A stretch of DNA of 64,000 nucleotides from Ignavibacteriota bacterium (GTDB lineage: Bacteria; Bacteroidota; Ignavibacteria; Palsa-1295). Position numbers and translations under genes: made by a program. The stretch is taken from contig CAWCCK010000022.1 of assembly GCA_963794025.1 (NCBI GenBank), positions 120,937 through 184,936 of the forward strand, in the 5' to 3' direction. The notes under the pieces are model-generated. The model worked only from the letters and a program-made list of their open reading frames with translations. It made no database searches and was not told the origin of the DNA. Of the stretch, positions 8,526-59,991 are shown piece by piece. The stretch's first letter is position 1; every line of letters starts with the position of its first letter.

Positions 8526-9029
8526 AGACGAAGGGTGGTGAGGATTATTGTATGATTATTCGTTCAGATTATACGAGTAGAAAAGTCCCTGTTTCAACGG
8601 CTATCAATTTCTTAATAAAACGGGTGCTTTACAAAAACGCATTTGTGCCTCATGAACAGTGGCGTTTCCAAGCTATTTTCGCCGTTGTCTTCCAGCAATT
8701 GGTGCCTTTCTCTCTCTCTTGAATGTTCATTTAATGAACTTATGCAATATTATCTCGACTTTTCATGAATTTATGCAATTTCTTTCATGCCGAAACGCAT
8801 GGTTCCCCATCTTTCATCTTTTATCTTTCATCTTTGCCAAAAGGGGTGCCCATCAAAGCACAAGCAACTTACGAAAATAAAATGCCAATGTCAAGCAATT
8901 CCTAAAAATAATCAAAAATAACCAAACATGTGTATAGAGGCGACGTGTGGCAGTTGAGAAGATATGAAGTACCGGCTATCAAGTGATGTTCAAGGAACGT
9001 GGCCGTAATTAAAAGATGCAACTTTTAGT

Positions 9030-12455: not shown

Positions 12456-12480
12456 GGACGTGCGCAGCACGTCCCTACGG
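12456..12480 (+). repeat. REP-like hairpin GGACGTGCgcaGCACGTCC followed by CTACGG.
   Basis: Perfect 8-bp stem with a 3-nt loop. A near-identical reverse-complement copy lies at 55061-55085 (cgtagggacgtgctgtgcacgtcc). Confidence 0.55.
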
Positions 12481-16858: not shown

Positions 16859-16873
16859 TGTAGCGCAAATAAT

Positions 16874-16897
16874 GTAGCGCAAACTTCAGTTTGCGAT
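16874..16897 (+). repeat. Palindromic repeat GTAGCGCAAACTTCAGTTTGCGAT, preceded by a tandem partial duplication aatgtagcgcaaat.
   Basis: A reverse-complement copy lies at 46775-46800 (atcgcaaactaaagtttgcgctacat). Confidence 0.5.
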
Positions 16898-17381: not shown

Positions 17382-18581
17382 TTAATCCCGCTCGAACACG
17401 CCCGCAATGCCTTGCCCGACGCCGATGCACATCGTGGCAATGCCGCGCTTTACGTTCTTGCGCTTCATTTCGTAGAGGAGGGTTGCCACAAGCCTGCCAC
17501 CACTTGCGCCAAGCGGGTGACCGATCGCAATGGCTCCGCCATTTGGATTAACAATCGCGGGATCGAGGCCGAGTTCCCGAATCACGGCAAGACTTTGGGA
17601 AGCAAATGCTTCGTTCAATTCGAAGAGGTCGATGTCCTTCACATCAAGCTTTGCTCGCGTAAGCGCCTTGCGGACTGCATAGATCGGCCCCACTCCCATG
17701 CAGCGCGGCGAAAGCCCTTCGACGCCGCTTGCCACGTATCGTCCGAGCGGTTCCACGCCAAGCCGCTTTACAACTGCTTCGCTCACCACGACGACCGCGC
17801 TTGCGCCATCGTTCAAACTGCTGGAGTTCCCAGCTGTCACCGATCCGCCTTTGCGAAATGCCGGTTTCAGCGTTGCAAGCTTTTCTATCGTGGTGTCTGA
17901 GCGCGGTTGTTCATCTTGCGTGACAACCGTTTTTCCTTTTCGATTCTCGATGGTTACTTCGATAAGTTCATCGTTGTAATCGCCCCGTTCCTGCGCGGCA
18001 ATAGCGCGTCGATGCGATTCGAACGCGAACGCATCCTGATCTTCGCGCGCAACCTTCCATTGCTCCGCAACATTTTCCGCCGTCTCGCCCATGGATTCTA
18101 ATGGGAACATTGCTTCGTGGCGTGGATTGGGATAACGCCAGCCGAGCGCGGTGTCATAAGCGGGAATGTTTCCGAACACCGCGCCGCCCGATACATTTTT
18201 CGGCAGTGAATAGGGCGCGCGCGTCATGGATTCCACGCCGCCCGCGATAATAATATCGGCTTCGCCCAACTTGATCGCGCGCGATGCTTGAATGATCGCA
18301 TCCAGCGAAGAACCGCATAGCCGATTGACCGTCACGGCAGGAACCCGTTCCGGGAACCCGGCGAGGAGCACAGCCATGCGCGCTATATTACGATTGTCTT
18401 CACCGGCTTGATTAGCGCAGCCGAAGATGACGTCATCAATTTCTGCAGTGTCAATTCCCGCGCGTTCGGCCGCGGCTTTCATGACAAGCGCGGCCATGTC
18501 GTCGGGACGCAGGTCTTTAAGCGCGCCGCCATATTTCCCAAAGGGTGTGCGGCAGGCGGAGAGGATGTAGGCTTGTGGCAT
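17382..18581 (-). CDS. Acetyl-CoA C-acyltransferase (thiolase).
   Basis: Motifs [12 protein letters not shown] (active Cys), [17 protein letters not shown] and CIGVGQGIA; 399 aa. Confidence 0.85.
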
Positions 18582-18588
18582 TAATTAA

Positions 18589-18614
18589 GAATTACGAATT
18601 TCAAATTACGAATT
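18589..18614. repeat. AATTACGAATT tandem motif (2 units).
   Basis: Member of the dispersed AATTCGTAATT family (19308-19340, 31316-31342, 31933-31995, 37633-37657, 51224-51234). Confidence 0.55.
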
Positions 18615-19308: not shown

Positions 19309-19340
19309 AATTCGTAATTCGTAATTTGAAATTCGTAATT
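19308..19340. repeat. AATTCGTAATT tandem motif (3 units).
   Basis: aaattcgtaattcgtaatttgaaattcgtaatt, in the orientation opposite to the 18589 copy. Confidence 0.55.
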
Positions 19341-25439: not shown

Positions 25440-28400
25440 TTGAACCCCAAAACACATTCCAACGAACTCCGCCTGTTCGTCTCCTCGACGTTCCGCGACC
25501 TCATGCCCGAACGCGAGCAGTTGGTGAAAAAAATCTTCCCGCGTATCCGCAAAGAGTGCCGCGAACGTGGCATCGAATTCACCGAAATTGACCTGCGCTG
25601 GGGAATAACCGAGGAAGAATCGCGCACCGGCAAAACCATTCGTATCTGCCTGGAAGAGATCGACCGCTGCCGACCGTATTTCATCGGAATTATCGGCTCG
25701 CGCTACGGATGGGTTCCCGGCATCACCGAGATCGAAAAAGACGAAGAAATGCTGAAAGAATTCCCGTGGCTCCGCGACTATGCCGCCAGCGATAAAAGCA
25801 TTATCGAAATGGAATTCGCGCATGGCGCGATCCTACGGAAAAACGACAGCGCGTTCTTTTATGAACAGGGGAACAACGATTCACAGTACTCAAATGACAA
25901 AATGGACTCAAATGACAAGTCCTTTCAGTCCATTTCGTCCCTTGAGTCCCTTAAACATACCCTTCAATCCACCGGAGTTCCCTATCGCCGCTTCACCGAT
26001 CCCGAAGAATTAGGCGAGCAGGTATTTCAGGACATCCTCACCATTCTCGACCGCGATTTTCCGCAAAAGAAAGAGATGACGCCGCTCGATCACGAACGCG
26101 CCGAGCACGAAGCGTATTCGCGGAACCGGCGGCAATCGTATGTTGCAAATCCGGAGTATTACGAGGCATTTGCAAAATATGTGGAGTCCGATGGCCCGCC
26201 GCTTATTATTTGGGGAAGATCGGGTTTGGGCAAGAGCGCGCTCATGGCGTATCTGGCGCATGAATATCAAACGCGGAACCCGAATGCCTTCGTCGTCCAG
26301 CATTTTATCGGCGCAGCCGAAGGCAGCGATCCCGAAGACGTGATGCGTCAGGTGATGATGGAAATAAAAGAACGCTATCAGCTTGCGGACACGATCCCCA
26401 CCGACGAAAACGCGCTCCGGGAAGAATTCCCAGTCTGGCTGGCGAAAGTAGGAGGGGATGGTCAGGCTGAAAGCACTGACCTACGCGTAGGTCGGCGCTT
26501 CCAGCCCGACACCCTCATCCTTTTGATCGATGCGCTCAACCAGCTTACAGGCATTGCGCCGGAAATGCACTGGCTGCCGGATTTCATTCCCGCGAATGTG
26601 CGCCTCATCGTTTCAACAACAACCGAGAGCCTTCCCCTTGCACAATTACGCGAGCGGAAGTGGAATGAATTGGAACTTCAGCCGCTAACCGAACAGCAGC
26701 GCGAAGCTATCGCGCAGGGTTTCCTGAATCGCTTTCACAAATCGCTGCCGCTGAGCGATCTGCACACGCTTTCGGCAAATCCCAAATCGTCGAGTCCGCT
26801 GTTTTTGCGGACGGTGCTGGAAGAGCTTCGCATTTTCGGGCATCACACTACGCTGCACGAAGAGCTTGAGGATTATTTAGCGAGCGCGGATGAAAGAGAA
26901 CTATTCCAGAAAGTGCTCGCCCGCATGGAGCGCGATCATGGCGAAGACGCCGTTCGTAATGTCATGACCGCCATCTGGGCGTCGCGGCACGGGCTGTCGG
27001 AATCCGAACTGATGCAGATCACCGGCAAGCCGCGCATGGAACTATCGGAACTTATGATCGCGATGGAATACCACCTCATGACCCGCGAAGGGTTCCATAC
27101 CTTCTTCCATAATTATTTGCGCGAAGCGGTGGAGATGCGCTACATGCCGGATGAAGTAGCGCGTAAAGCTGCACACGCGAAAATCGGGGAATATTTCTCC
27201 ACAAGAGAATATGGCCATCGACGAAGAGACGAAGAACCCTGGCAATGGACCGAGGCGGGTGAAAAAGAGAGGCTGATCGGATCGCTTGCCGATCTCGCTA
27301 TGCTAAATCTCTTCATACAAAGTCAGAGGACGCACGAGTTAGTTACCCATTGGGTGCATGCCGATATGGATCGTGTTGCAGGGAGTTATGCCGATTCTTA
27401 TGGCAAGTTACCGGATAATGTTGGCAATGCGGAGCGTCAAGAGCAACTGCGGAACATCGGCAAGATATTGCTGGCCGCTTCAAGGCCAATGGACGCGCAG
27501 GGGTACTTAGAGCGATCGCTTGAATTTACGCGAAAGATTCATGGAATTAAAAGCTTTCAAGCAGCGGAGGCGTTAGAAGATCTGGCTGAATTGCAATACG
27601 AACTTGCCGATTTCAATGGCGCAAAAAACTCACTGCAAGAAGCTGTTTCCATTCACGAAGAAGCGAATAGTTCACCGCTGAAAGTAGCGGCGCGCTATAG
27701 TTCCCTCGCTTCCGTTGCGTACCAGCAGCAACAGTATGAAGAGGGATTGATGTTTTGTAATAGTGCGCTTGCGGTTTTGCCCGAAGGCGGATGGGATGAA
27801 GACACATTGCGCGCTGATATTTTCACCAATATGAGCGGTTTGTATTACAGGCAAAAGAAATTGAATGAGGCAATTTCTGCTGCGGAACAGGCTGTTGAAG
27901 CTCAAAGAAATTTGCATGGCGATTCCGACAATCATACGCTGATCGCCATGAACAATCTCGCATCCATTCTCTCAGCAGCCGGTAGATATGTGGAATCGGA
28001 ACAATTGTTTCTATCCCTCATAGTAACCTTGAAAATGAATTTGGGGAAAACCCACCTTAATGTTGCTAGTGCGCTGAAAGGATTTGCTCTTGCTTTAGAA
28101 CGTGCCAATCAAATACCAAGAGCGAAGGCAGCAATTAAAGAAGCGTTAGCAATATTTCTCAAACATCTTCCATCCGATCATCCAGAACTGCTTTCTGGAC
28201 AATTGGCTGTAGGTGCCTATGAATTTCTGGAAGGCAATTTCAGTGAAGCGGAGAAAATATATCGACAATATGAACCACTTCGCGCCACCATTCTCGGCTT
28301 CACTCATCCCACTGTGCTGCGCGGCCGTGAGCGTTATATTGAAATACTTCTCGCTCTCGGCAAAAATAGAAGAAGCCTCCATGCTCAAATTGGAACTGGA

Positions 28401-31228: not shown

Positions 31229-31315
31229 ATTTGGCCGCGAAGCCCTCGTCGAAAACGGCGATTGGATTCTTTTACACCGCGATAGGCCGCTTGAAGTTCC
31301 CAAAGGAGCGTGAAT

Positions 31316-31342
31316 CAATTACGAATTACGAATTACGAATGG
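31316..31342. repeat. AATTACGAATT tandem motif (3 units).
   Basis: caattacgaattacgaattacgaatg, immediately followed by a hairpin element at 31366. Confidence 0.55.
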
Positions 31343-31365
31343 GGAATTCCGATGCAAGTACAAGT

Positions 31366-31932: not shown

Positions 31933-31995
31933 AATTACGAATAAGGGAACACTCAGTCCCTATAATTCGTAATTCGTAACTCGTAATTCGTAATT
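31933..31995. repeat. Inverted arrangement of AATTACGAAT / AATTCGTAATT units (1 + 4 units) around a short hairpin.
   Basis: aaattacgaataagggaacactcagtccctataattcgtaattcgtaactcgtaattcgtaatt. Together with 31316-31342 it brackets the DUF4236 gene. Confidence 0.55.
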
Positions 31996-32001
31996 GCCGT
32001 C

Positions 32002-34833
32002 ATGTTTCCAAAGTTCGCTTTTGGTTTCGGATATCTGATCGTGCTGCTCGCAGCAGGGTTGCTCGCGCTTGGGATTTATTTCAAGTCGGGGACCGTGCCG
32101 GAGTATTCCGGCTCGGCCAGCGTTGCTGGTATTTCGGGAACGATCGATATTGACCGCGATGGATTTGCCATCCCGCATATTCACGCTGCCACGGAGCGCG
32201 ATGCGTATTTCGGCTTGGGTTACGCGGAAGCGCAGGATCGGCTCTTCCAAATGGAATTTGCACGACGTGCGGGTGAGGGAAGGTTATCGGAAGTATTTGG
32301 GAACCGGACGCTGCAAATCGATAGATGGTCGCGCACGATAGGGTTTGCGCGTATCGCCGACCAGATGTGGCTGAAGGCCGGTACGCATACGCGCGAAGTG
32401 CTCACGGCTTTTTCCGGCGGAATCAATGCGTATCTTAAAGATCACCGTAAGCATTTAGGATTTGAATTCGATGCGGTTCAACTTGTTCCGGAAAATTGGC
32501 GTCCGCAGGATTGCCTGATGATCGGGCGGCTGATGTCGTGGGAACTGAACTTCTCTGCGTTGACGGATGCCGCCTTCACCGATTTTTCTCAAGTGCTGGA
32601 TTCAGCGCATTTGCATTCGATCTATCCCGTCTATCCCGACGATGGCGCGACGGTGCTCGGTGGCGCAAATCCGAGCACGTTCGTTTCGAATTATCTGGCG
32701 GGGAGTCGGGCTGGAAGCACCGACCTACGCGAAACAGGCGCACGACCAAAGCCACTTGATACTACGAAGAAGCTACAGGTCATTCCCAAAACTTCGCAGC
32801 GAATGGAAGACCCCGATTCTTCGCGGAACGATTTTGCGTCGCTGTTCCAGCAAGCCAGCGATTTCGATAGCGCGGTTGGCGCGTGTATCGGAGTTGGCTC
32901 CAATGCGTTCGCCATTTCGGGTTCCCACACAGCGGATGGCGCGCCCATTCTCGAAAACGACGCACACTTGCAGCTTCAATCGCCTTCGCGGTGGTATCTT
33001 GCGCATCTTGTAAGCGACGATGGATTCGATGTTGCGGGTTTTCTTATTCCTGGTTTGCCCGTCATTATTTCGGGACGTTCGCACGATCTTTCGTGGGGCA
33101 TCACCAACGGCATGACGGACGAGTGCGATTATTTTATCGAACATCTCGATTCGACTGGAACGAAATATATGCTTCCGAATGGAGCGTCGCAAGCGTTTAC
33201 CGTTATTCACGATACGATTCGCGTGCGTGATTCCGCGAGCAAAGATCAATCGCATGCAGTTCCCATCACGGTACGCATGACGATCCACGGGCCTATTGTG
33301 ACAGGAATGCATCCGCAAGCGATCGAAAGTAAATTTTATAATGATGCTCGCGCAGGCGGCATCCCAAATAATTCCATCTTTTTCCGCGATGGAAAACCCG
33401 TTGCGATGATGTGGAACGGAACCTACGCGCTGACGGACGAGCTATCCGGGTTCCTGGAACTTCCGCGCGCGAAGACCGTCACAGAAGCCAAACGCGGTAT
33501 GTCGGGATTTGCTACGCCGTGCCTGAATCTCTGCTTTGCCGATACGCATGGGAACATTGCATATCAATTTATTGGAAGGATACCGCGCCGGAATGGAACG
33601 GAAGCCCGGCAAACGCTTCCGCGCGATGGAACTAATCCTTCCGACGCATGGATGGGATTTGTGAATATGTCCGAGCTTCCAACGGTAACGAATCCTGCGC
33701 GAGGATATATCGTATCTGCCAATAATCCGCCGTTAAAAGACCGTCCGGTTCCCTACGGAATAAATTGGGAACCCTCATCGCGCGCTGACCGCATTGGGGA
33801 ACTGCTTGCCGAGCGCCCGCACCCAGATGCGGGATATGCGCAGAGCATTCAAACGGATATTATCAGTCCCTACGATCTTCAGCGCGTGCTGCCGTATCTG
33901 CTTGCGCTGTATCCCGATCCCAATCCGCCACGACTCACTGCGGATAGTTCTTCCACGTTTAGGATTGACTCTATGCGGCTCGCATGGAAAGAAGATTCCC
34001 TTTATCGTCATACCTCGATTGGCGATAGCGCGATGAAATATGTCCGGAGGAATGATTCCATTTGGATCGCGGAGCACAAGCTGGCGGACGACCGCTTGCG
34101 AATTAAAACCGAGAACGTCGATCCGTTCACTGCGCAAGTTCTCAATTATCTTCGCAACTGGGATGGCGGAATGCGCGCGGAGGAGATCGCTCCCGCGATC
34201 TATTCCGTGTTTCTAAATCGACTGATCTATAATACTTTTTATGAAGGACTGAGCGGGAACGAAACATCTTCTCAACGGTACGACGAATTTATTTTGCTGC
34301 AGAACATTCCGCTCCAAACGCTGGCGCATTTGTTGCCGGATAGTGGGAATGTATGGTGGCATACCAGCTTCGGCAACAATTATGGGCGCGATTCCATCAT
34401 TCAGCTTTCATTCCATCAATCGCTTCGCATCTTAGCGCAAATTTTTGGTTCCGATATGCGCCAGTGGCAATGGGGGAAATTACACTCGCTCACGATTCGT
34501 CATGCGTTCGATAAAGAAAGCCCGCTCCTTGCCAAATTGGTCGATGTCGAAGGCGGGCCAATGCCCGGCGGGCCGACAACGGTGCTACAAGGTTCCTATT
34601 ATATGTGGAACCCGTATCAAATGCAGGTTGGCCCTTCGATGCGTATGGTCGCGGATATGAAGACCGATGAGCTGCTCGCCGTGCTCCCGACTGGGAACTC
34701 CGAAGCGATCTTCGGCGATCATTACCGCGACATGCTGCCTCTGTATCGAGATGGAACCTTAATTAGAGTTCCGTTAAATGAGCCGACAGAACGTGGCTCC
34801 AATTGGAAACGATTTGAACTGAGACCGGAATAA
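32002..34833 (+). CDS. Penicillin/cephalosporin/AHL acylase family Ntn-hydrolase (943 aa) carrying an in-frame palindromic-repeat insertion.
   Basis: Motifs AYFGLGYAEAQDRLFQMEFARR, the GSNAFAISGSHTADGAPILENDAHL Ser-nucleophile region, and an N-terminal TM/signal. A low-complexity insert lies around 32690-32830. Confidence 0.75.
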   Translation: MFPKFAFGFGYLIVLLAAGLLALGIYFKSGTVPEYSGSASVAGISGTIDIDRDGFAIPHIHAATERDAYFGLGYAEAQDRLFQMEFARRAGEGRLSEVFGNRTLQIDRWSRTIGFARIADQMWLKAGTHTREVLTAFSGGINAYLKDHRKHLGFEFDAVQLVPENWRPQDCLMIGRLMSWELNFSALTDAAFTDFSQVLDSAHLHSIYPVYPDDGATVLGGANPSTFVSNYLAGSRAGSTDLRETGARPKPLDTTKKLQVIPKTSQRMEDPDSSRNDFASLFQQASDFDSAVGACIGVGSNAFAISGSHTADGAPILENDAHLQLQSPSRWYLAHLVSDDGFDVAGFLIPGLPVIISGRSHDLSWGITNGMTDECDYFIEHLDSTGTKYMLPNGASQAFTVIHDTIRVRDSASKDQSHAVPITVRMTIHGPIVTGMHPQAIESKFYNDARAGGIPNNSIFFRDGKPVAMMWNGTYALTDELSGFLELPRAKTVTEAKRGMSGFATPCLNLCFADTHGNIAYQFIGRIPRRNGTEARQTLPRDGTNPSDAWMGFVNMSELPTVTNPARGYIVSANNPPLKDRPVPYGINWEPSSRADRIGELLAERPHPDAGYAQSIQTDIISPYDLQRVLPYLLALYPDPNPPRLTADSSSTFRIDSMRLAWKEDSLYRHTSIGDSAMKYVRRNDSIWIAEHKLADDRLRIKTENVDPFTAQVLNYLRNWDGGMRAEEIAPAIYSVFLNRLIYNTFYEGLSGNETSSQRYDEFILLQNIPLQTLAHLLPDSGNVWWHTSFGNNYGRDSIIQLSFHQSLRILAQIFGSDMRQWQWGKLHSLTIRHAFDKESPLLAKLVDVEGGPMPGGPTTVLQGSYYMWNPYQMQVGPSMRMVADMKTDELLAVLPTGNSEAIFGDHYRDMLPLYRDGTLIRVPLNEPTERGSNWKRFELRPE
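32705..32731 (+). repeat. Copy of the 27-bp element (GTCGGGCTGGAAGCACCGACCTACGCG) inside the acylase CDS, in-frame.
   Basis: Differs from 3676-3702 by one base and encodes SRAGSTDLRE. Confidence 0.7.
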
Positions 34834-36760: not shown

Positions 36761-37647
36761 AGCGCGAATCCAATTCCAAAGCTGACGGACGTGCCGAGAT
36801 CGGGATGACGAACTGCCGCGAAGTCGGCAGTGAAGTTCCCAGTAGCGACACCAATGCCTCCGGAAATTTCTCCGGTTCCCGTATCCCCGCCCGCGCGAAC
36901 GAAGAGGTGGGAATCAATATCATATTCCGCGCCGACGTGAAAAGCAGCGTTATATTCCGCGCTCGATTCGAACGCGGCGTCCAGCGTAAGATCGTTTGTC
37001 GCACGATATGAAAGTCCAAACCATCCCACGCGATCTTCGACGGAGTCGCCATAATTATTATAGAGGCTGACGAGGTGCGTAACGGCGGCGGCAAGTGTAA
37101 GATTTGGGAACAGATCGAAACTTACGCCCAGATCCACGCCGATGTCATCAAGCGGAAGGTACTCGGAACCAAAAGTTTCCTGCGAATAGCGAATACGGAT
37201 GCCGGCCACGGCATGGCGCCTGGTAGAACTATCGCCGTCGTTAACATTCGTTCCGCCAACGGCAAATGTTCTCGATGCCTGGATGCCAAATGTTTGCCAG
37301 GAATAGGCGTCGGTCCATTGATACCGGCTGAGCGACACACCGGCAAGCCAAAGCGGATCGAGCGGAATATCCCCGGCAAATCCGGCGCTCCAGCTTTCGG
37401 GAAGTCCCAACGGCAGTGGCGAAAGCGTTGCGTGCAGATGAGATGACGTATCGACTGGGAGTGCGGGACTCGGAACCCATTCATCGCGCGCATCGGCTAG
37501 ATCGCTGCCACCGATCGCGAGTGAGCGTGGGGAATCGCTCGTAGCGCCGAAAATCTGCGCGTGCGCGATGGGAACTTCGGTCAGCGCAATAAAAAGAAAA
37601 ACGCAGAACAGGACGCGCATGGGACAAGTACAAATTACGAATGACAA
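36757..37647 (-). CDS. Outer-membrane beta-barrel protein (PorP/SprF-like or OMP_b-brl-like).
   Basis: Signal peptide MRVLFCVFLFIALTEVPIAHAQ, alternating hydrophobic beta-strand pattern, about 296 aa, ending GIGFAL. Confidence 0.45.
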   Translation of the reverse strand: MSFVICTCPMRVLFCVFLFIALTEVPIAHAQIFGATSDSPRSLAIGGSDLADARDEWVPSPALPVDTSSHLHATLSPLPLGLPESWSAGFAGDIPLDPLWLAGVSLSRYQWTDAYSWQTFGIQASRTFAVGGTNVNDGDSSTRRHAVAGIRIRYSQETFGSEYLPLDDIGVDLGVSFDLFPNLTLAAAVTHLVSLYNNYGDSVEDRVGWFGLSYRATNDLTLDAAFESSAEYNAAFHVGAEYDIDSHLFVRAGGDTGTGEISGGIGVATGNFTADFAAVRHPDLGTSVSFGIGFAL

Positions 37648-37657
37648 ATTACGAATG
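37633..37657. repeat. AAATTACGAATGA tandem motif (2 units).
   Basis: aaattacgaatgacaaattacgaatga. Confidence 0.5.
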
Positions 37658-38559: not shown

Positions 38560-38583
38560 TTTTAGCTAAGAATGAAGAAGTAA
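38560..38583. repeat. Reverse-complement copy of the TTCTTAATTCTTACTTCTT motif.
   Basis: gaatgaagaagtaagaattaagag. Confidence 0.5.
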
Positions 38584-38609
38584 GAATTAAGAGTAGGGAA
38601 GGTTAATTT

Positions 38610-46206: not shown

Positions 46207-46774
46207 TCCGAACCGGGATTACGCGGATTGGATGGATTACTCGGATTAGAATGTAGGGGCTAATGGCATTAGACCATTCGTCTCCTGCAAAACGGGTCAA
46301 TGCCATTGACCCCTACAAAAAAATAATATATTTTCGGATTTCCCTTGCTTTTGCTCTCAGAATGTTGTAAGTTCGGTAGTACATTAATGGGCACCAATTT
46401 CTATAAGAATAATATAATTATTAGCTTTCTTTATGAACGAGTTCTCTATGAAAAGTAAACTGCGGATACTTGTTGCAACAAATGGCGAAATTAGTTTGGA
46501 AACGAAGGTGCATCGGGAACTCACAAGAAAGAAAAACGGCACCTATTTCTGGGGGAACATGGATTTGGAATGAAGGAGGTTAAAAGAACTATCTTCAGCT
46601 TCAGCGGGTTTACGGCGCGCTATTTGGCATAGGGCGGATGAAGCAGGGGGTCTGTTTATTCGTCCTGCGGGGAGCAAACATTCGGTTGTTACGGGCCAGA
46701 ATTTCCTCGCAACAATGGTTTGGCAGGAGAGCTTCTAACTACTGCAGAACAACAATATTGTCAAAGGCGCAAAA

Positions 46775-46800
46775 ATCGCAAACTAAAGTTTGCGCTACAT
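46775..46800 (-). repeat. Reverse-complement copy of the GTAGCGCAAACTTyAGTTTGCGAT palindromic repeat, just upstream of rplJ.
   Basis: atcgcaaactaaagtttgcgctacat versus 16874-16897. Confidence 0.5.
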
Positions 46801-46805
46801 TATAA

Positions 46806-52638: not shown

Positions 52639-53193
52639 TTATTCGATCGTCGCATTTACGCCGCCGTTTGTGATCGTCATCGTCGAGGGGCCATTTCCTT
52701 TCAGCAATGTGAGCGTACCGTTAAACGTGGCTTGAAGGTTCGTCGCAGAAAGTGAGGTTATGGTAATGTTACCAACGCTAGTGGTTCCGGCAATCGGGGA
52801 TGAATAAGTCCCTGTATCTCCGGAGTTGTTGTTGAAGCCATAGTCCATGGTGGCATAGGTTTCAGCGGTGCCACTAAAAGTGACAGGTCCTACCGCGTAA
52901 GATGTACCCACTGTTGATTCATTTATCAGAGCGAAACCAAGACCTCCTGCCGTTGTTCCATCATTGCCTCCCGCAACTGTAATAGACATTATGCCGGGTA
53001 CAGATGTTTGAACCGCGTAAGCATTGGTATCGGTGTACGTGGTTCCGTTGACTGTGAAGACGATCGTATGGGGTGTGGATGGTACGTTGCCTCCTCCACC
53101 ATTATTATTGCCCGACGTAGTCGAAGTGCTGTTCGATTTACACGAGCCAAAAGCAAACGCTGCTACAAAGAGAATCGCTATATGTAATTTCAT
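52639..53193 (-). CDS. Lipoprotein (lipobox FGSCK), the downstream member of a tandem paralogue pair.
   Basis: Signal peptide plus Cys. The C-terminus ATFNGTLTLLKGNGPSTMTITNGGVNATIE is paralogous to that of the 53321-53842 protein. Confidence 0.6.
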   Translation of the reverse strand: MKLHIAILFVAAFAFGSCKSNSTSTTSGNNNGGGGNVPSTPHTIVFTVNGTTYTDTNAYAVQTSVPGIMSITVAGGNDGTTAGGLGFALINESTVGTSYAVGPVTFSGTAETYATMDYGFNNNSGDTGTYSSPIAGTTSVGNITITSLSATNLQATFNGTLTLLKGNGPSTMTITNGGVNATIE

Positions 53194-53320: not shown

Positions 53321-53842
53321 TTAATCAACAAAATTCGCGTTCACGCCGCCGTTTGCGATGGAGATCGTCGCGGCACCATTCTGTAGCGTCAGTGTCCCGT
53401 TGAACGTAGCCTGAACGGATGTTTTAGAAATCGCAGTTACCGTCAACGTGCCAACAGATTTTGTAGTAAGCGATGGCTGCGTTGGGGAAGTGTACGTTAT
53501 CGCAGTTCCGGATGAATCCCGCGTGCAGCTCATGATGACATAGCCCGGAGGAATCACGCTCACGGAGCCGACCGCGTAGTTCCCGGTACTCGCGAACGTG
53601 GCTATCGCAATGTCGTAATTGATACCGGTGGTTGCATTTGCTCCTACGATAGCAATGCCACTTGCACCGTCATACGTGGTATCCGTTGCGTACGCGGTTA
53701 GCGTATCCGTGACGCCATTAATACTAAGGTACATCGTATTTGCCGCCGTTGGCACATCGCTCGCGGGAGTCGGGCTGGTGCTCATTTTGCACGAAGCAAA
53801 AACAAGCGTCATTAAAAAGAGTATTGCGATTCTAATGTTCAT
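53321..53842 (-). CDS. Lipoprotein (lipobox FASCK), the upstream member of a tandem paralogue pair.
   Basis: C-terminus ATFNGTLTLQNGAATISIANGGVNANFVD. The upstream regions aaagttacgaaatcattatgc and aaagttacgaaattattatgc are duplicated too. Confidence 0.6.
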   Translation of the reverse strand: MNIRIAILFLMTLVFASCKMSTSPTPASDVPTAANTMYLSINGVTDTLTAYATDTTYDGASGIAIVGANATTGINYDIAIATFASTGNYAVGSVSVIPPGYVIMSCTRDSSGTAITYTSPTQPSLTTKSVGTLTVTAISKTSVQATFNGTLTLQNGAATISIANGGVNANFVD

Positions 53843-53928: not shown

Positions 53929-54600
53929 TCACTTTAATTCTCCGTTTTCCATGTGCATCGTCCGGTCCGCTTGAGCGGCTAAGTCGAGATTATGCGTGGC
54001 GATCAGGAATGTCTGCCGATGTTCCCGCGATAGATCCATAATAAGATTGAATAGAATATCGCTGTTGCGCGCATCGAGGTTCCCAGTCGGCTCATCCGCA
54101 AGGATGATCGCCGGTTTCATCATGAACGCTCTGGCAACGGCAACCCGCTGCGATTCCCCGCCTGAAAGCATCGATGGCCGGTGATCTAATCGCTCTTTCA
54201 AACCGGCATTGCCGAGCAACTCCGCCGCCCGGTCACGCGATTCCTCGAATGTTTTCCCCGCGATCATCGCCGGCATCGCTACATTTTCCAGCGCAGTGAA
54301 TTCGGGCAGCAAATGATGAAATTGAAAGATAAAACCGATGCGCTCGTTCCGAAACGCGCTCAGAGCTTTATCTTCCATCTTGGCAACGTTCTGCCCTTCG
54401 ATCGTTACCTCGCCGCCGCTCGGTTTATCTAAAGTGCCGAGCAAATGCAACAGTGTGCTCTTACCCGCTCCCGATGGCCCGATCAGCGCCACGATCTCCC
54501 CCGCGTTCAGCGTAAACGTCAGATCCCGAAATACTTCGACATCCACCCTGCCCCGTACCGCAAACCGCTTCGATAATTTATTCGCTTCTAAGACTGCCAT
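53929..54600 (-). CDS. ABC transporter ATP-binding protein (LolD/MacB/FtsE-like).
   Basis: Walker A GPSGAGKST, signature LSGGESQRVAVARA, Walker B ILADEPTGNLD. Confidence 0.85.
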   Translation of the reverse strand: MAVLEANKLSKRFAVRGRVDVEVFRDLTFTLNAGEIVALIGPSGAGKSTLLHLLGTLDKPSGGEVTIEGQNVAKMEDKALSAFRNERIGFIFQFHHLLPEFTALENVAMPAMIAGKTFEESRDRAAELLGNAGLKERLDHRPSMLSGGESQRVAVARAFMMKPAIILADEPTGNLDARNSDILFNLIMDLSREHRQTFLIATHNLDLAAQADRTMHMENGELK

Positions 54601-54793
54601 GCTGTCACCTTTATTGTTCTATAAGAAATAGGTGCTTTTTTTCTTTCTTGTGAGTTCCCGATTTCCAATCGTAACCCTTCGATTCCGAACCAATTTCCAC
54701 ATTCGTTGCAACAAGTATTCATAATTTCCTTTCATAAAGAACTCGTTCCTAAAGAAACCTAATGCCGAATTGTCAATAGATTCATAAAATCCC

Positions 54794-54824
54794 ATTCTTA
54801 ATTCTTACTTTTTAATTCTTAATT
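54794..54824. repeat. TTCTTAATTCTTA tandem array.
   Basis: attcttaattcttactttttaattcttaatt, similar to 47-80. Confidence 0.5.
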
Positions 54825-54877
54825 GATATAGGTGCCCATCATTGCACTACTAATATAATACATTCCAAACCCGAATG

Positions 54878-54908
54878 CAAGGAAATCCCAAATTATTTTA
54901 AATATCGA
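54878..54908 (+). repeat. Left copy of a ~31-bp direct repeat, GCAAGGAAATCC(C/G)AAATTATTTT(A/G)AATAT.
   Basis: A right copy lies at 55889-55919. Together they flank the palindromes and the mazEF module. Confidence 0.6.
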
Positions 54909-54912
54909 GTGC

Positions 54913-55016
54913 GTGTAGAACAGGCTTTCCAGCCTGTTGGCGGACTTCCAAGTCCGTCCATGTTGTATCCCACACGAGCTAAAAGCTCGCCGACAGGCTG
55001 AAAGCCTGTTCTACAC
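54913..55016. repeat. Approximately 104-nt complex palindrome or structured element: four consecutive hairpins closed by GTGTAG/CTACAC.
   Basis: Hairpins are aacaggctTTCCagcctgtt, ggacttCCaagtcc, cgagctAAAagctcg and acaggctGAAagcctgt. The first and last are mutually complementary. Confidence 0.55.
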
Positions 55017-55060
55017 GGGCGCATCTATATCCCAAAGGAAGCGTTGCGAAAACCTGTGTT

Positions 55061-55085
55061 CGTAGGGACGTGCTGTGCACGTCCG
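55061..55085 (-). repeat. REP-like hairpin (cgtagggacgtgctgtgcacgtcc), the reverse-complement copy of 12456-12480.
   Basis: Near-identical 8-bp stem hairpin with the flanking CGTAGG. Confidence 0.55.
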
Positions 55086-55225
55086 TTTTTCACGACCCCA
55101 CATTCCAGATTACGTATAACTCTTAAATTCGTTGATAATTACCGGCACTGTTTAGAAATCGAAAATTTTAATGATGTAAGCAAACACCGAAGCGTGTATT
55201 TTCAAGCGAACCACCACGCAAAAAA

Positions 55226-55471
55226 ATGGGTTACAAAAACATGATAGAAATGAGGCAAAGTATGAGGATTCCACAAGACCATATTCTACACCTGAACGTT
55301 CCAAACGTCCCGAAAGGCGAAGAGGTGGAAGTGCTCGTCCTTTCGAAAAATGGTAGCGCTCATCCTGAAAAGATAGCGAGAATGGCCGAGGCCGCCAGAG
55401 ACCCACTCTACCGGCAAGACATGAACGACATTGCGAGTGATTTTGCGTTTGTCGATTCGGAACACATTTAA
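55226..55471 (+). CDS. Putative MazE-like antitoxin. The start is uncertain.
   Basis: Small ORF ending 3 nt before the MazF toxin gene. Confidence 0.45.
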   Translation: MGYKNMIEMRQSMRIPQDHILHLNVPNVPKGEEVEVLVLSKNGSAHPEKIARMAEAARDPLYRQDMNDIASDFAFVDSEHI

Positions 55472-55474
55472 GCC

Positions 55475-55822
55475 GTGGAATTCCGGTGGAATGTATTCCT
55501 CGCTAACCTCGATCCCGTCATTGGTTCTGAGCAGGGAAAGACGCGGCCTGTTCTTGTTGTGAGTGATGAGGATGTGAATCAGCTTCTTTCGATCGTGAAT
55601 GTACTGCCGATCACATCCAGAAAAGAGAATCGCAAGATTTATCCGAACGAAGTGCTCCTGAAAGTGGGCGACACAGGTCTTCCACTCGAATCAATTATCT
55701 TATGCCAGCAAATCCGAACGCTCGACAAAAAACGGCTGATAAAACATCTCGGAACGATTGAAGACGAAATGCTCCATGAAGAAATTCTCGAAGCTCTGAG
55801 TTTTCAGTTAGGTATGCAATAA
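55475..55822 (+). CDS. mazF: MazF/PemK-family endoribonuclease toxin.
   Basis: The segment FLANLDPVIGSEQGKTRPVLVVSDEDVN...VNVLPITS is the typical MazF/PemK core. Confidence 0.75.
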   Translation: MEFRWNVFLANLDPVIGSEQGKTRPVLVVSDEDVNQLLSIVNVLPITSRKENRKIYPNEVLLKVGDTGLPLESIILCQQIRTLDKKRLIKHLGTIEDEMLHEEILEALSFQLGMQ

Positions 55823-55888
55823 GTTTTCCCGAAAATAACGCGAATCTTACTGGCTACGTTAAAGTATGAACTTACATCCCAAGCTTAT

Positions 55889-55919
55889 AAGCAAGGAAAT
55901 CCGAAATTATTTTGAATAT
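55889..55919 (+). repeat. Right copy of the ~31-bp direct repeat.
   Basis: agcaaggaaatccgaaattattttgaatat versus 54878-54908. Confidence 0.6.
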
Positions 55920-55941
55920 TTCCGGCTTTTAGCGAAAACCC

Positions 55942-56691
55942 ATGCTAACCACACCAGTTGCCGATCGAATCATCCGCTTCCTCAATAAGCTCCCGATCAC
56001 GGGCGATCGTGAACAGTGGATGAAAGCTATGTTCGAGGCGCTGCATGAATTGTGTCCTGATGCCGATCGCGTCAGTGTCAACATCGAACTTTTTTGTGAT
56101 CCGCTGGGCCGTGGAAAACCCGATGAAGGGTTACCATCAACGGTACAATTTACAAAGGAAGGAGAGAATAAAACGCTTACAATAACGCCCGTTGCATCCG
56201 GCGAACGTACAGCGGAGTTCGAACGCGAATTCTCAAACCTCATCAATCCTTCCAACTATCACCCTCCCAAGTTTTTCCACTATTTTCTCGACAATGGAGA
56301 TTTCATTGCTACTATCACATTGCTCCGCGAGAAACAGAAACCGCCCTTCTCTGAGGAATCGCTTAGGCTTGTAAGTGATCTCGAACCCTTTATGAAATTC
56401 GCCTTTGCCTCGTTTCTTTCCATGCAGAAGGTCGAGGAACCATTCACTGCTGTGTTTCGGGATGCTGTCTATCGAATGCAGAAAGAAGCAAAATTCTCCG
56501 ATCAGGAGCTTAATGTTTTGATACTCAGGCTTACAGGCTACTCCTACAAAATGATCGCAGCCAAGATGAACATCTCGCTCAATACGGCTCGCACACATAT
56601 CAAAGCGATTCACCGAAAGACAGGCACGCGGAGCCACACCGAACTCTTTGCCAAATATTTTACTCCCGTGGCGCGCGAGTTTCTCCCGTAG
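55942..56691 (+). CDS. LuxR-family transcriptional regulator (C-terminal HTH) with an uncharacterised N-terminal domain.
   Basis: The C-terminus ELNVLILRLTGYSYKMIAAKMNISLNTARTHIKAIHRKTG is a LuxR-type HTH. Confidence 0.7.
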   Translation: MLTTPVADRIIRFLNKLPITGDREQWMKAMFEALHELCPDADRVSVNIELFCDPLGRGKPDEGLPSTVQFTKEGENKTLTITPVASGERTAEFEREFSNLINPSNYHPPKFFHYFLDNGDFIATITLLREKQKPPFSEESLRLVSDLEPFMKFAFASFLSMQKVEEPFTAVFRDAVYRMQKEAKFSDQELNVLILRLTGYSYKMIAAKMNISLNTARTHIKAIHRKTGTRSHTELFAKYFTPVAREFLP

Positions 56692-56750
56692 CACAAAGAT
56701 GTGATACCCGCACTTGTAACCTTTGTGTGCTTTGGTGGTCTTATACTTAG

Positions 56751-58850
56751 ATGAATCATTTTTATTCCCCCAAACGAATATGGTTAGCGCTGCTACTCCT
56801 CTCGATTGCAGCGGGTGGTGCGCGTGCGCAATGGAGGATTGTGGCGCCGAATTTAGCAAATTTTGACACCCTAGCTGGCGTAAATTATCAATTTGGCGCC
56901 ATGTGCTTTCGGGACGGCAATCTCTGGATTGCAAATGTCCCGTATCTTTTTCGCTCGACCGATTCCGGCATCACTTGGACGCGGCAAAACCTAGACCAGC
57001 CATACAACACTGAAGATGCATGCGAGCTTGATTTTTTCGATACGGCTAACGGTCTCCTCATTATGCGAACGGGAGTTTTTGTGACGAACAATTCCGGGGC
57101 AAGCTGGACGCAAATTAAATCGGCACGTGGATTCGGAGGATGCTTTATGGATAGCCCAAATCACATTGCATTTACCGGCGATATAGTTCCTGGCGCTATT
57201 ACAACGGAAGGTGGTATTACCACCGATCGAGGAGTAACATGGAACGACGGCCCTCTTATCGAAGATGGGACTTCCGCAAAATACAAGGCCGGAACTGCTT
57301 ATATATTTGGCGGGGATACCACTGGGGGGCGGATTTATACATCCAAAGATAATGGCGCGTCGTGGCAAAAAAGTGCTTCGAGTATCCATTTTGATTGCTG
57401 GTCGTTCGCGATTGATTCCTGCGATCCAAACCGCATGTATGTTGTCAATGAAGAGAACGCTGCTGTAGAGGACCAAGCTTCAACCGACAACCATGCCCAT
57501 TTTTTTGTGACGACAGATTTGGGGACAACCTGGCAATCAACCTTTTCCACATCAATCCCGCCGTGGTTTTTCACGGGATCGATTGCCGAAGGTATACATT
57601 CGCTTTATTGCCAGACTGTTTCCGATGGAGTGTTTCGTTCCATCGATCGCGGGCTGACTTGGATCTCGATTGGCGGTCCATCGATGGACTATAATTATGA
57701 TAGGCGTCTGATTACTGCTATAAATGATAATATCGTATTGGCGGTCGATGGAGAAGGGAACGTTTGGCGAACGGATAATAGCGGCGGTGATTCGATTGCG
57801 CTTCCGCAATCTTCATCCCCTAATAATGCTCTCTTTATACCTTCGCCAAACTCTATCGTCAATCAAAGCCTTTGTACTACGCAAATCGATACCTCCATTC
57901 CAGTAGGTATCTTTGGTTGTGGAACTCTAACCGGAACGCTTGATTCGCTTTGGCTTACCGGCTCGTCCGCATTTCAAATCGCTGATTCTCGCACCGATCC
58001 GAGAACTATTGGGATACTCGATAGCATCCTTGTCAATTACGATGGTACCCAGGGATCAGATACTTCGATATTGCATCTTCAATATAATATCGGCTCCGGT
58101 GTACAGGATACTGCCATTCAACTTATCGGTTCCGCTGCGTTTGCTTCACGCTCAGCGCAACTTCACCGTGAAGCCGCATCCGCATATTTCGGGCAAGTTG
58201 ATTCCCTCACGCTTGGAGTCGATCTTAGCTCGCAGATAAATATCGATTCGCTCTGGCCGTTCATTACGGACATTCAGTTTACGTTCACATGGGATTCCTC
58301 TGTCGTCAGCGAAGATGATTATGTCCCACCTTCGGGTTGGAAGTTAACCTCACTTACGGGTAACGGCAATTCGGAGAGTATCGAGATTCAGAATAAATCT
58401 TCTGTCGCTACGCAGCCATTGAATCTCGGTACCGCGCTGTTTTTACCCGATTCAACGCAGCTTGCGACAGGCTGGGTGGAACTTCCGAGCTTAGTAATTG
58501 ATATTGGCAGTCAGCCGCTTTCGCTCTGCGTGACGGATAACGAAGATAACCATTGGTCGGTGAAAACGCTTGGCGTAATGAGCGGCGTGACAGAAGTTCC
58601 TGTTATTACTCAAGATATTTCGGTTTACCCCAATCCCGCCGAAGATGAACTCTTCGTGCGAAATGCAAACGAGTTCCCGCTTTCGATCGAGATGTACGAT
58701 GCAATCGGCCGGGAAGTTTTATCTGCAACCGGAGCGTCGTCATCGACCACTACACTCGCCACGCAGTCGCTTCAGAATGGCGTCTATTTCTTCCGTGCGA
58801 CGAATGGAACCGGCTTTTCATCTTCGAGCAAGATTGTGATCGTGCGGTAA
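56751..58850 (+). CDS. BNR/Asp-box repeat beta-propeller secreted protein with a T9SS C-terminal sorting domain.
   Basis: Repeated SxDxGxTW motifs (STDSGITWT, TNNSGASWT, TTDRGVTWN, SKDNGASWQ, TTDLGTTWQ, SIDRGLTWI), a signal peptide, and C-terminal VYPNPAEDELFV...NGVYFFRATNG. Confidence 0.75.
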   Translation: MNHFYSPKRIWLALLLLSIAAGGARAQWRIVAPNLANFDTLAGVNYQFGAMCFRDGNLWIANVPYLFRSTDSGITWTRQNLDQPYNTEDACELDFFDTANGLLIMRTGVFVTNNSGASWTQIKSARGFGGCFMDSPNHIAFTGDIVPGAITTEGGITTDRGVTWNDGPLIEDGTSAKYKAGTAYIFGGDTTGGRIYTSKDNGASWQKSASSIHFDCWSFAIDSCDPNRMYVVNEENAAVEDQASTDNHAHFFVTTDLGTTWQSTFSTSIPPWFFTGSIAEGIHSLYCQTVSDGVFRSIDRGLTWISIGGPSMDYNYDRRLITAINDNIVLAVDGEGNVWRTDNSGGDSIALPQSSSPNNALFIPSPNSIVNQSLCTTQIDTSIPVGIFGCGTLTGTLDSLWLTGSSAFQIADSRTDPRTIGILDSILVNYDGTQGSDTSILHLQYNIGSGVQDTAIQLIGSAAFASRSAQLHREAASAYFGQVDSLTLGVDLSSQINIDSLWPFITDIQFTFTWDSSVVSEDDYVPPSGWKLTSLTGNGNSESIEIQNKSSVATQPLNLGTALFLPDSTQLATGWVELPSLVIDIGSQPLSLCVTDNEDNHWSVKTLGVMSGVTEVPVITQDISVYPNPAEDELFVRNANEFPLSIEMYDAIGREVLSATGASSSTTTLATQSLQNGVYFFRATNGTGFSSSSKIVIVR

Positions 58851-58855
58851 AGTTC

Positions 58856-59305
58856 CTACCCTAAACGCGGATCGACGGGCAAATCTTCCACACTCACAAT
58901 TTCAATAGTGCGAGCGTGAGGATGAGAAGGATTAATTACGATATTATCTTCTTCACGAATGATGACGGAGGGAACCCGCATCGCCAGGAACTTAGCTGCG
59001 CGAAGAAAATCATCTCCAATGCGCTGACTGATGGCGGTCTGCGGGCGCTCGTCCCATCCAACGGGTAAATCGGCTAATTCTATTTTTCGGATATGCGCTC
59101 CCTGTGGTAAACGAAGTTTAACGAGCACCAGGTCACTCGGAAGGATCGTCGAATGAGCCAGCACTTCGAGCAGTGCGAGCGAGGGAGAAATAGAAGTATA
59201 GAGCATCGCGCTTCCAGCAGAATTCCATCGGCCTCCATCGAGGCGCGATCCTTTTCCGGTCACGTCATCGGCATACGCCCGTTTGGAAACCCGATAGACG
59301 ATCAT
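58856..59305 (-). CDS. RES-domain toxin (MbcT/Res-like, predicted NAD+-targeting).
   Basis: Conserved R...E...S arrangement (GGRWNSAGSAMLYTS ... LALLEVLAH); 149 aa. The antitoxin gene lies immediately upstream. Confidence 0.65.
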   Translation of the reverse strand: MIVYRVSKRAYADDVTGKGSRLDGGRWNSAGSAMLYTSISPSLALLEVLAHSTILPSDLVLVKLRLPQGAHIRKIELADLPVGWDERPQTAISQRIGDDFLRAAKFLAMRVPSVIIREEDNIVINPSHPHARTIEIVSVEDLPVDPRLG

Positions 59306-59796
59306 TAATACACGCCGTATTCAATGCGTGTCAACTCGGCCTTGACAACCTGCATTCCTGTGGTGGTATCCAGCAGTTCGTTCGGGGAAGTATTTCCTAA
59401 TGAGAAACTCGGAGCGCCGAGCCACATCTTGAATTTTTCTTCGCTTCCAAAAACTTCCCGCCCGCGCTCCACGATCTGAGCTACTAAGAGCGCGCGCTCT
59501 GTCGAGGTAGAATCCATAACCGAATTCTCCTTTCGATACCGTTGGATCGTGCGCGGTGTAATTTGAAGGAACCGCGACCACTCTTCATTCGAAAATTTCG
59601 ACGCCTCCTGAATCTGCTCGAGCTGACGCCCGCGAATACCATGTTTCGATTCCTCGATCATTTCCATCGGACTTAGCGTTGCGGCCCATCGCAGAATATG
59701 CCTGTTGCGCAGCGTCTTTGCATGAGTGGCGATACGTTCTTTTTTCAAAGGAGTGCGTGCTTTGCGTGGAAAGGCGACTGCTTTTTTGGTTAACAT
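59305..59796 (-). CDS. Xre/MbcA-like antitoxin (DUF2384 C-terminal domain) partner of the RES toxin.
   Basis: The C-terminus FKMWLGAPSFSLGNTSPNELLDTTTGMQVVKAELTRIEYGVY matches the DUF2384 pattern. It abuts the RES gene. Confidence 0.6.
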   Translation of the reverse strand: MLTKKAVAFPRKARTPLKKERIATHAKTLRNRHILRWAATLSPMEMIEESKHGIRGRQLEQIQEASKFSNEEWSRFLQITPRTIQRYRKENSVMDSTSTERALLVAQIVERGREVFGSEEKFKMWLGAPSFSLGNTSPNELLDTTTGMQVVKAELTRIEYGVY

Positions 59797-59991
59797 CGTA
59801 TTGTGACATTTGTCGTGAATAATGCGACAAATAATCTAACCGACCCGGTGCGATAACAATTCCTGATAATCCTATTCTTGAGATATACGTTCGTAATTTC
59901 CATAATTAATTTTATGTCAATTAAACCATTCATGCATAGTACATCTCTTACAATAGAACCGATTACCCCTCGGTTGGATTTACCTTCATAG

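Follow-up and report, generated by a model that had tools for sequence, protein, structure and literature searches.

Direct repeats around a mazEF module in an Ignavibacteriota genome are probably promoter-derived sequences of a strain-variable island

Introduction

In a stretch of 64,000 nucleotides (nt) from an Ignavibacteriota bacterium (assembly GCA_963794025.1, contig CAWCCK010000022.1; below, the window), a mazEF-type toxin–antitoxin (TA) module stands between two short direct repeats, accompanied by a long palindrome and a smaller hairpin. The arrangement raises the question of whether the module arrived as one repeat-bounded unit. An initial annotation had proposed this, reading the segment of about 1 kb as a small inserted cassette or as the scar of a site-specific integration that delivered mazEF. 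We analyzed the repeats in the window and in loci fetched from related genomes and metagenomes (numbered with the prefix L). The explanation that best fits the whole of the data is probably that the repeats derive from the promoter of the neighboring lolD-like gene, within a strain-variable TA/defence island, and are not integration scars.

Results

The direct repeat is part of a probable promoter module

The direct repeat was confirmed, with a length of 29 nt instead of 31 nt and with coordinates shifted by 1–3 nt. Its core, GCAAGGAAATCC[C/G]AAATTATTTT[A/G]AATAT, occurs in direct orientation at 54877-54905 (copy 1) and 55891-55919 (copy 2). The pair is not expected by chance (0 matches, 100 shuffles), and the window holds no other match to the 29-mer at up to three mismatches. 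The ungapped likeness of the two copies extends to 47 nt at 81% identity (54859-54905 vs 55873-55919).

Copy 1, taken at 54859-54905, is the distal half of an intact putative promoter module, P1, and comprises its A/T tract, -35 hexamer and spacer. A profile was built with nhmmer on the conserved 71-nt end of this module and run on the window and on the fetched loci of relatives. It returned five copies in the window, at 3715-3782(+), 8906-8844(-), 46325-46396(+), 54899-54830(-) and 55914-55873(-). Four of them are full, and the fifth, which is copy 2, is truncated. Another 15 copies were found in the loci of relatives. Thus the search for further repeat copies revealed a dispersed promoter family, which the initial annotation itself had named as the finding that would speak against a scar.

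Read on the gene-directed strand, the module starts with an A/T-rich tract (AAAATAATTT), continues with CGGATTTCC, the -35 hexamer, a 17-nt spacer and the -10 hexamer (TATATT or TAAGTT), and closes, after about 8 nt, with (A)TGATRGGCACC. The -35 hexamer is TTGCWT in the module, with TTGACA or TTGACT in diverged copies. Fifteen of the 16 distinct copies combine TTGCWT, TTGCTA, TTGACA or TTGACT with a distance of 17 nt (16 nt in one), a -10 hexamer of TATATT, TAAGTT, TATTTT or TATCTT, and then the GGCACC box. The spacer sequences vary among the 16 copies while the hexamers and their spacing stay, and copy 2 is the sole one without a usable -10. When about 12 copies are compared, between species too, the tract AAATAATTTCGGATTTCCTTGC is better conserved than the hexamers. 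The module copy before the dehydrogenase gene (copy C below) scored 11/12 in a scan for consensus promoters. A Bacteroidota-type -7 box (TAnnTTTG) was considered for the plus strand of the repeat and rejected as a misfit, the TATTTTG found there being one T short.

The genes downstream of the module are unrelated to one another. In the window these are the lolD-like ABC ATPase gene (copy A), rplJ for ribosomal protein L10 (copy B), the gene of an L-glutamate gamma-semialdehyde dehydrogenase of proline catabolism (copy C) and an extracytoplasmic function (ECF) sigma factor gene (copy D). Elsewhere, the module precedes an ECF sigma gene (L009), rpsL for ribosomal protein S12 (L015) and the gene of an HD-domain protein (L008b); related Kapabacteria/Ignavibacteriota genomes carry it too, for example before rpsL. 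At our locus, P1 would serve lolD, its TTGCAT-17-TATATT pattern standing 251 nt upstream of the lolD ATG. On its left, the variable island described below is bounded by the conserved lolD.

Copy 2 retains much less of the module. Its match to the profile spans only model positions 1-42 of 71, GTTCAT occupies the -10 position, the GGCACC box is missing, and the sequence fails a test for sigma-70 hexamers and spacing. It points antisense into the 3' end of mazF and adjoins the LuxR-family gene on the upstream side, facing away from it. Copy 2 agrees with the lolD-promoter copy of the relative L017 at 47 of 55 positions; compared with copy 1 in the window, only 40 of 55 agree. When the core was taken with the 8 nt beyond it, the lolD-locus copy of L017 was again the best match (39 of 41), above any other module copy.

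Upstream of mazE lies a third, decayed copy of the distal half of the lolD promoter, P2'. P2' belongs to the variant seen before lolD in L024, and it contains the exact 19-mer CGGCACTGTTTAGAAATCG at 55143-55161. Its local alignment score of 52 was reached by none of 300 shuffles. The window holds, at this locus, three promoter-distal copies in the same orientation, each before another unit: the REP cluster (repetitive extragenic palindromic elements, see below), mazEF with the adjoining segment X, and the LuxR–BNR gene pair.

Orthologous loci separate mazEF from the repeats

Orthologues of lolD, whose homologues bear the JGI (Joint Genome Institute) name 'lipoprotein-releasing system ATP-binding protein', were found in L001, L006, L014, L017, L023, L024 and L026. 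In the window, the order leading away from lolD is the promoter with copy 1, REP elements, mazEF, X, copy 2, the LuxR gene and the BNR gene. L001, from the same species, has this arrangement with a different REP content. L017 (88–97% nucleotide identity) shows the promoter with copy 1, a single REP2, a split REP1, REP1, mazEF, X and then the ATG of the BNR gene; it has mazEF and lacks both copy 2 and the LuxR gene. In the related species represented by L014 (metagenome-assembled genome (MAG) MFD05512.bin.2.5, 77–86% nucleotide identity), the promoter with copy 1 is followed by REP1, an inverted split REP1, an inverted REP2 with its right flank, X' and the ATG of the BNR gene. L014 lacks mazEF, copy 2 and the LuxR gene, and keeps copy 1 with both inner flanks.

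These loci delimit two events. The first is an indel of about 770 bp that carries mazEF, begins at REP1 (~55061) and ends 5 nt downstream of the mazF stop codon (~55827). Since the mazEF-less L014 keeps REP2 with its right flank as well as X, this indel ends well inside the repeats. X is the sequence that natively precedes the BNR gene. The second, separate indel comprises copy 2 and the LuxR gene: both are missing from L014 and from L017, so copy 2 goes with LuxR and not with mazEF. Of the proposed cassette, the part that holds is that mazEF is strain-variable cargo inserted or exchanged at this place, being absent from the orthologous locus in L014. The repeat-bounded 1-kb segment does not hold as the inserted unit, given mazEF without copy 2 in L017 and indel ends at ~55061-55827. 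Nor did the expected empty site with one repeat appear, because L014 presents copy 1 together with the REP2 and X inner flanks.

Over the block from REP1 through mazEF to X, the window and L017 are 97% identical, compared with 84.5–93% around the block, which suggests a recent exchange by recombination through its flanks. Other relatives hold different cargo beside the lolD promoter. L024 has vapBC (PIN_3; L024 5120-5739) between the promoter and the same REP2 dimer as in the window. L024 and L001 come from one metagenome, so the haplotypes coexist. L023 (LolD 97%) carries Type ISP restriction–modification (R-M) genes and a Bpu10I-like nuclease (L023 1572-5607). In L006, whose lolD orthologue is 86% identical at the nucleotide level, copy 1 is followed by an unrelated convergent open reading frame (ORF) of 86 aa (L006 63-323). 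The more distant L026 (LolD 84%) has no island; there, lolD follows 66 nt after the end of an OmpA-like gene. The island, which reaches from the lolD promoter to the ECF sigma gene (~54905-59900), is thus hypervariable, measuring from 0 to ~5 kb. Depending on the strain, its cargo includes mazEF, vapBC, RES-Xre, Type ISP R-M genes, the LuxR–BNR pair and clustered REP elements with a GTAG tag.

GTAG-tagged REP elements make up the palindrome and the hairpin

The initial annotation of the palindrome, of the smaller hairpin and of the two ORFs of the TA module was confirmed, apart from small coordinate errors. The palindrome had been described as a 104-nt structure to be folded. It is predicted to form a strong hairpin, with a folding energy of -70.2 kcal/mol (z = -10.1). 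Its arms are perfect over 18 nt (54912-54929 / 55000-55017), and the stem extends to ~34 bp. It is a head-to-head dimer of a GTAG-tagged element, REP2, with units at 54912-54938 and 54993-55017, GTAG ends outside and a spacer of ~54 nt that itself contains two small hairpins (54942-54955 and 54975-54989). A REP2 unit consists of GTAG and AACAGGCT-TTC(C)-AGCCTGTT, reads cgtGTAG-AACAGGCT..., and has a stem of 7–8 bp with a loop of 3–4 nt. The smaller hairpin is a singleton of another element, REP1, with an 8-bp stem, a 3-nt loop and the tag context tcGTAG-GGACGTGC....

Among the tetramers that directly precede perfect hairpins of at least 7 bp on the 5' side in the window, GTAG ranks first (9 of 84, where ~1.6 are expected), and at least six different hairpin sequences carry the tag within the 64 kb. 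REP1 has a second window copy on the minus strand (12456-12479) and occurs in L001, L014, L017 and L024. REP3 has four copies in the window, with others in L008 and L014. REP1, REP3 and REP4 are present at unlinked sites and in relatives. Across the window and the fetched loci, REP2 was seen at the mazEF locus only (window, L001, L014, L017 and L024). Its dimer recurs in L024 at 82% identity, and L001, L014 and L017 have only single or degenerate units.

The REP content of the locus varied in every strain examined, the forms being a dimer, a singleton, a degenerate unit and a unit interrupted by an insert of 28 nt. Of the 16 module copies, at least 7 have a REP that directly adjoins the A/T tract on its outer side. 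The REP elements are probably selfish or insulating DNA with a fast turnover beside the promoter.

Several related observations were made. The 28-nt insert, CCTTCGACAAGCTCAGGGCAGGCTCCGC, lies between the stem arms of a REP1 unit in L001 (794-841), L014 (6629-6676) and L017 (~5527-5572); it is kept across strains and the related species, and occurs in either orientation. GTAG hairpins of at least five other types lie at 3671-3702, 16869-16897, ~18975, 26450-26521, 32700-32731, 46240-46320, 46775-46803 and ~48024. In the dimer at 26450-26521, the GTAG ends meet at the center of the palindrome, overlapping in CTACGCGTAG, and the dimer at 46240-46320, which resembles a REPIN (REP doublet forming a hairpin), lies just outside promoter copy B. 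As a known RNA family the palindrome was rejected: a search of the whole window at the Rfam gathering threshold gave no match, and in E-value mode the hits for 54500-56000 did not rise above chance (mir-281, E = 0.72; sroE, E = 0.18).

The promoter is joined to a leader of two types

Together with the leader that follows it, the promoter forms an intergenic module of 230–310 nt, present in the window as A 54601-54905(+), B 46559-46325(-), C 3976-3717(-) and D ~8600-8906(+). Relatives carry it too, in loci from metagenomes and MAGs (L005, L007-L009 and L014-L017). The non-coding leaders of lolD and rplJ share 57 nt at 81% (54676-54732 / 46452-46508) and 48 nt at 88% (54615-54662 / 46512-46559). 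The lolD leader also holds the near-palindrome TTCGTTGCAACAAG around 54704-54717.

Two types of leader were distinguished. That of lolD is of type 1 in the window and in L014 and of type 2 in L001, L006 and L017, while that of the ECF sigma gene is of type 2 in the window and of type 1 in L009. The occurrence of different leader types before orthologous genes points to exchange or gene conversion between module copies. One copy, L008b, has the promoter and the GGCACCTAT box with no leader.

Four readings of the leader or module were discarded. A structured leader RNA found no support, as the lolD leader folds like its shuffles (z = -0.24), and an alignment of five sequences gave no covariation and an alifold energy of -3 kcal/mol. 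A small conserved ORF does not fit either, because the nucleotides shared by copies A and B fall in different reading frames. A reading of the module as a miniature inverted-repeat transposable element (MITE) was rejected, since no terminal inverted repeats or consistent target duplication were seen. A simple duplication of the two GGCACCTAT boxes was set aside because further shared sequence comes after them in some copies. Runs of a 7-nt unit (AATTCGT / AATTCTT and their complements), one of them within the lolD leader, occur in many intergenic regions of the window on both strands, often as inverted pairs ~620-700 nt apart.

mazEF and the neighboring genes

The features of the locus are collected in Table 1. 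The putative antitoxin, of 81 aa, matched no Pfam or NCBIfam family; a homologous gene sits upstream of MazF in L018-L020. MazF homologues of 65–80% identity occur in archaea, Desulfonema, Deferribacteres and others. The closest mazEF relatives outside the lineage (72% nucleotide identity) have unrelated flanks, and the homology, as with L018 and L019, is confined to 55268-55822, from which it follows that the mobile unit is the two genes only.

No recombinase gene is present among the ORFs of 54600-56700, which are the antitoxin, MazF and LuxR only. The window contains no tRNA or tmRNA gene, and hence offers no tRNA-linked integration site. A plasmid search with 54600-55950 gave no match, and a protein search of species-representative genome contigs gave no relative of the LuxR protein.

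The BNR/sortilin-repeat gene, which encodes a sorting tail for the type IX secretion system (T9SS), is a mosaic: L017 and L014 share its 5' signal region and its 3' third in conserved form, while its middle is divergent. The sequence directly before its start codon, X2, is weakly similar to X (~65%), so the segment with copy 2 and LuxR is bracketed by two diverged BNR-upstream sequences. Further on, before the ECF sigma gene is reached, the BNR gene is followed by a second TA pair, with a RES-domain toxin and an Xre/ParS-type antitoxin. This pair is missing from the L014 and L017 loci; L017 has ~140 nt with REP-like hairpins in its place. On the other side of lolD, two tandem paralogous lipoprotein-like genes (52639-53193(-) and 53321-53842(-)) have no Pfam match. 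Their C-terminal coding parts and upstream regions are duplicated, giving repeats of 46–48 nt at 73–80% identity.

Table 1. Features of the lolD–mazEF–BNR locus and 7-nt-unit runs, in window coordinates.
Feature	Position	Strand	Evidence or description
lolD-like ABC ATPase gene	53929-54600	-	ORF; Pfam ABC_tran, E = 4.4e-36
Non-coding 5' leader of lolD, type 1	54601-54829	-	80-88% identical to rplJ leader 46420-46559
P1, intact promoter module copy	54830-54905	-	nhmmer match 54899-54830, 67.7 bits; reads leftward into lolD
P1, GGCACC box	54831-54836		
P1, -10 hexamer	54852-54857		TATATT
P1, -35 hexamer	54875-54880		TTGCAT; 17-nt spacer to -10
P1, A/T-rich UP-like tract	54881-54905		Upstream of -35
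Palindrome, REP2 dimer	54912-55017		Head-to-head, GTAG-tagged GTAGAACAGGCTTTC(C)AGCCTGTT; REPIN-like
REP1 hairpin	55061-55084	+	CGTAGGGACGTGCTGTGCACGTCC; CGTAG and GGACGTGC-TGT-GCACGTCC, then T run
P2', decayed promoter distal half	55119-55172	-	Upstream of mazE
Putative antitoxin gene (mazE), 81 aa	55226-55471	+	ORF ends 4 nt before toxin gene
PemK/MazF-family toxin gene (mazF)	55475-55822	+	Pfam PF02452, E = 3.5e-29, 101.6 bits vs cut-off 23.1
X, 46-nt segment	55828-55873	+	Homologous to sequence directly before the BNR/T9SS start codon in L014 and L017
P3' (direct-repeat copy 2)	55873-55919	-	Truncated; UP-like tract, -35 TTGCTT and spacer only
LuxR/GerE-family regulator gene	55942-56691	+	
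X2	56718-56750		Directly before BNR start codon
BNR/sortilin-repeat gene with T9SS sorting tail	56751-58850	+	
RES-Xre TA pair	58856-59305, 59305-59796	-, -	Xre/ParS-type antitoxin: NCBIfam, E = 2.3e-33
7-nt-unit runs	48-78, 18580-18614, 19310-19340, 31314-31348, 31965-31995, 37623-37657, 38561-38597, 54794-54824		AATTCGT / AATTCTT and complements

Discussion

With the above results in hand, we considered how promoter sequence could have come to stand on both sides of mazEF. Alternative haplotypes of the island, each starting with its own lolD promoter, may have been joined, and P2' and copy 2 would then be relics of promoters left in the same orientation. One crossover of such a joining would be homologous, and the other would be illegitimate and fall inside the resident promoter. 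Haplotype joining of this kind would account for the survival of distal halves only, for the single orientation of the relics, and for the place of each relic before an older cargo unit.

Several points weigh against the promoter-based explanation as a whole. The repeat family is dispersed but not abundant as an exact sequence: the exact 21-mer core is low-copy, with two sites in one MAG, one in another and five in the metagenome collection. A haplotype in which the lolD promoter is directly followed by LuxR was not found among the contigs with LolD homologues. Whether the indels represent gain or loss is judged from few genomes. A truncated module copy before a distant LuxR-like gene in L016 suggests that copy 2 could have a function of its own. 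From its pattern and its conservation, the repeat appears to consist of a UP-like tract, a -35 hexamer and a spacer, as part of a strong sigma-70-like promoter of the housekeeping type. For this lineage the sigma-70-like reading is provisional, since sigma-A promoters of the Bacteroidota type have another form (TTTG / TAnnTTTG).

The L016 copy also bears on the first alternative, in which copy 2 traveled with the LuxR–BNR pair from another genomic place and its relation to copy 1 is coincidental. The truncated copy in L016 (87%, model positions 1-55) stands with GTAG REPs before LuxR-like and BNR genes, a LuxR gene and a gene for a T9SS-tailed protein form a conserved pair in L010-L013, L021 and L022, and the homology of L010 begins at ~55905, within copy 2. 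However, the LuxR-like protein of L016 is only 30% identical, and copy 2 with its 8 adjoining nt fits the lolD locus of L017 best. Nothing module-like was found upstream of the LuxR homologues in L010, L011, L021 and L022, which also led us to reject copy 2 as a general LuxR-associated element. We therefore regard a separate journey of copy 2 as unlikely, though worth keeping in mind.

The 29-mer may instead be a protein-binding site under selection at the lolD promoter and upstream of LuxR, so that copy 2 would be a working cis-element, acting for example on LuxR expression or on an antisense transcript into mazF. The conservation of AAATAATTTCGGATTTCCTTGC beyond that of the hexamers, in its ~12 copies and across species, agrees with this, as do the truncated copies before LuxR-type genes in two genomes. 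Against it, copy 2 lacks a -10 at the right spacing, most LuxR homologues have no such element, the close strain L017 does without copy 2, and the tract, as read from its sequence, has no clear dyad symmetry. Such a role for copy 2 is improbable.

More doubtful still is a preferred recombination site. The promoter-distal sequence of ~45 nt would, on that account, stack cargo units beside lolD in a cassette array reminiscent of integron cassettes, either independently of a recombinase or with an unrecognized one; the three same-orientation copies, each before another unit, could be viewed in this light. In a milder version, whole promoter-leader modules may exchange between unrelated housekeeping genes in the lineage.

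A cassette of ~1 kb brought in by site-specific integration or bounded by a long target duplication, with attL/attR-like repeats and mazEF as its freight, retains hardly any probability: the repeats are indeed real, direct and non-random and mazEF is strain-variable and horizontally promiscuous, but L017 and L014 contradict it, the copies are only 81% identical with copy 2 nearer to the lolD copy of another strain, neither an integrase nor a transposase is encoded in the segment, and the repeat is a promoter part that stands before unrelated genes.

The probable promoter-derived origin of the repeats leaves a locus built from components of known kinds. Nothing in it is categorically new, and finding them in a little-studied lineage is unsurprising to a specialist. 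The inverted REP pair with GTAG outside corresponds to the head-to-head (HH) dimer of Di Nocera et al. (2013; PMC3733652), for which spacers of 20–100 bp, some of them structured, were described, and to the REPIN layout of Bertels and Rainey (2011; PMC3116915). The elements of our locus share with these the short GC-rich hairpins preceded by GTAG, the clustered extragenic position, the HH dimer with a structured spacer of ~54 nt, and a number and arrangement that differ between close strains. They differ in the at least six hairpin sequences under one tag in 64 kb and in the position of several units, which directly adjoin a promoter on its upstream side and do not lie at the 3' ends of genes. 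Di Nocera et al. found GTAG REPs in Proteobacteria, Cyanobacteria, Chloroflexi and the Planctomycetes–Verrucomicrobia–Chlamydiae (PVC) group, and only CGTC-type elements in Bacteroidetes/Chlorobi. GTAG REPs, including a REPIN-like dimer, in a Kapabacteria/Ignavibacteriota-like genome were thus not reported for Bacteroidetes/Chlorobi in that study.

The promoter module resembles the putative mobile promoters of Matus-Garcia, Nijveen and van Passel ('Promoter propagation in prokaryotes', 2012; PMC3488235), which are sequences of 50–100 nt that share at least 80% identity and precede non-homologous genes, both inside a single genome and between genomes. The lolD and rplJ modules share 48–57 nt at 81–88%, so that a stretch of at least 50 nt at 80% or more precedes non-homologous genes here as well. 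The promoter core stands before lolD, ECF sigma, rpsL and HD-domain genes across genomes, and partial copies occur too. The difference is that the shared unit can include a leader of ~200 nt, of two types; no ends of an insertion sequence (IS) or MITE were recognized on the promoter-leader module. Its strong conservation and its place before genes for ribosomal proteins and other housekeeping functions make the module a candidate for a strong native promoter in this uncultured lineage.

The TA module resembles a type II mazEF in its toxin gene of the PemK/MazF fold, in the small gene ending 4 nt upstream of it, and in moving as a two-gene unit. Its putative antitoxin differs in matching no family described in Pfam or NCBIfam. 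The clean direct repeat around the pair also provides a caution, because it mimics an integration scar, and the comparison of four to six related haplotypes points instead to promoter DNA that was probably duplicated as a variable island was rearranged.

The island as a whole compares with the known defence/TA hotspots in its conserved flanks (lolD and the ECF sigma gene) and in cargo that alternates among strains. Unlike them, it is small, has no integrase or tRNA gene, and has its internal junctions marked by promoter relics and REP clusters. It can be described as a compact hotspot at the side of lolD, in which mazEF, vapBC, RES-Xre and R-M genes alternate between strains.

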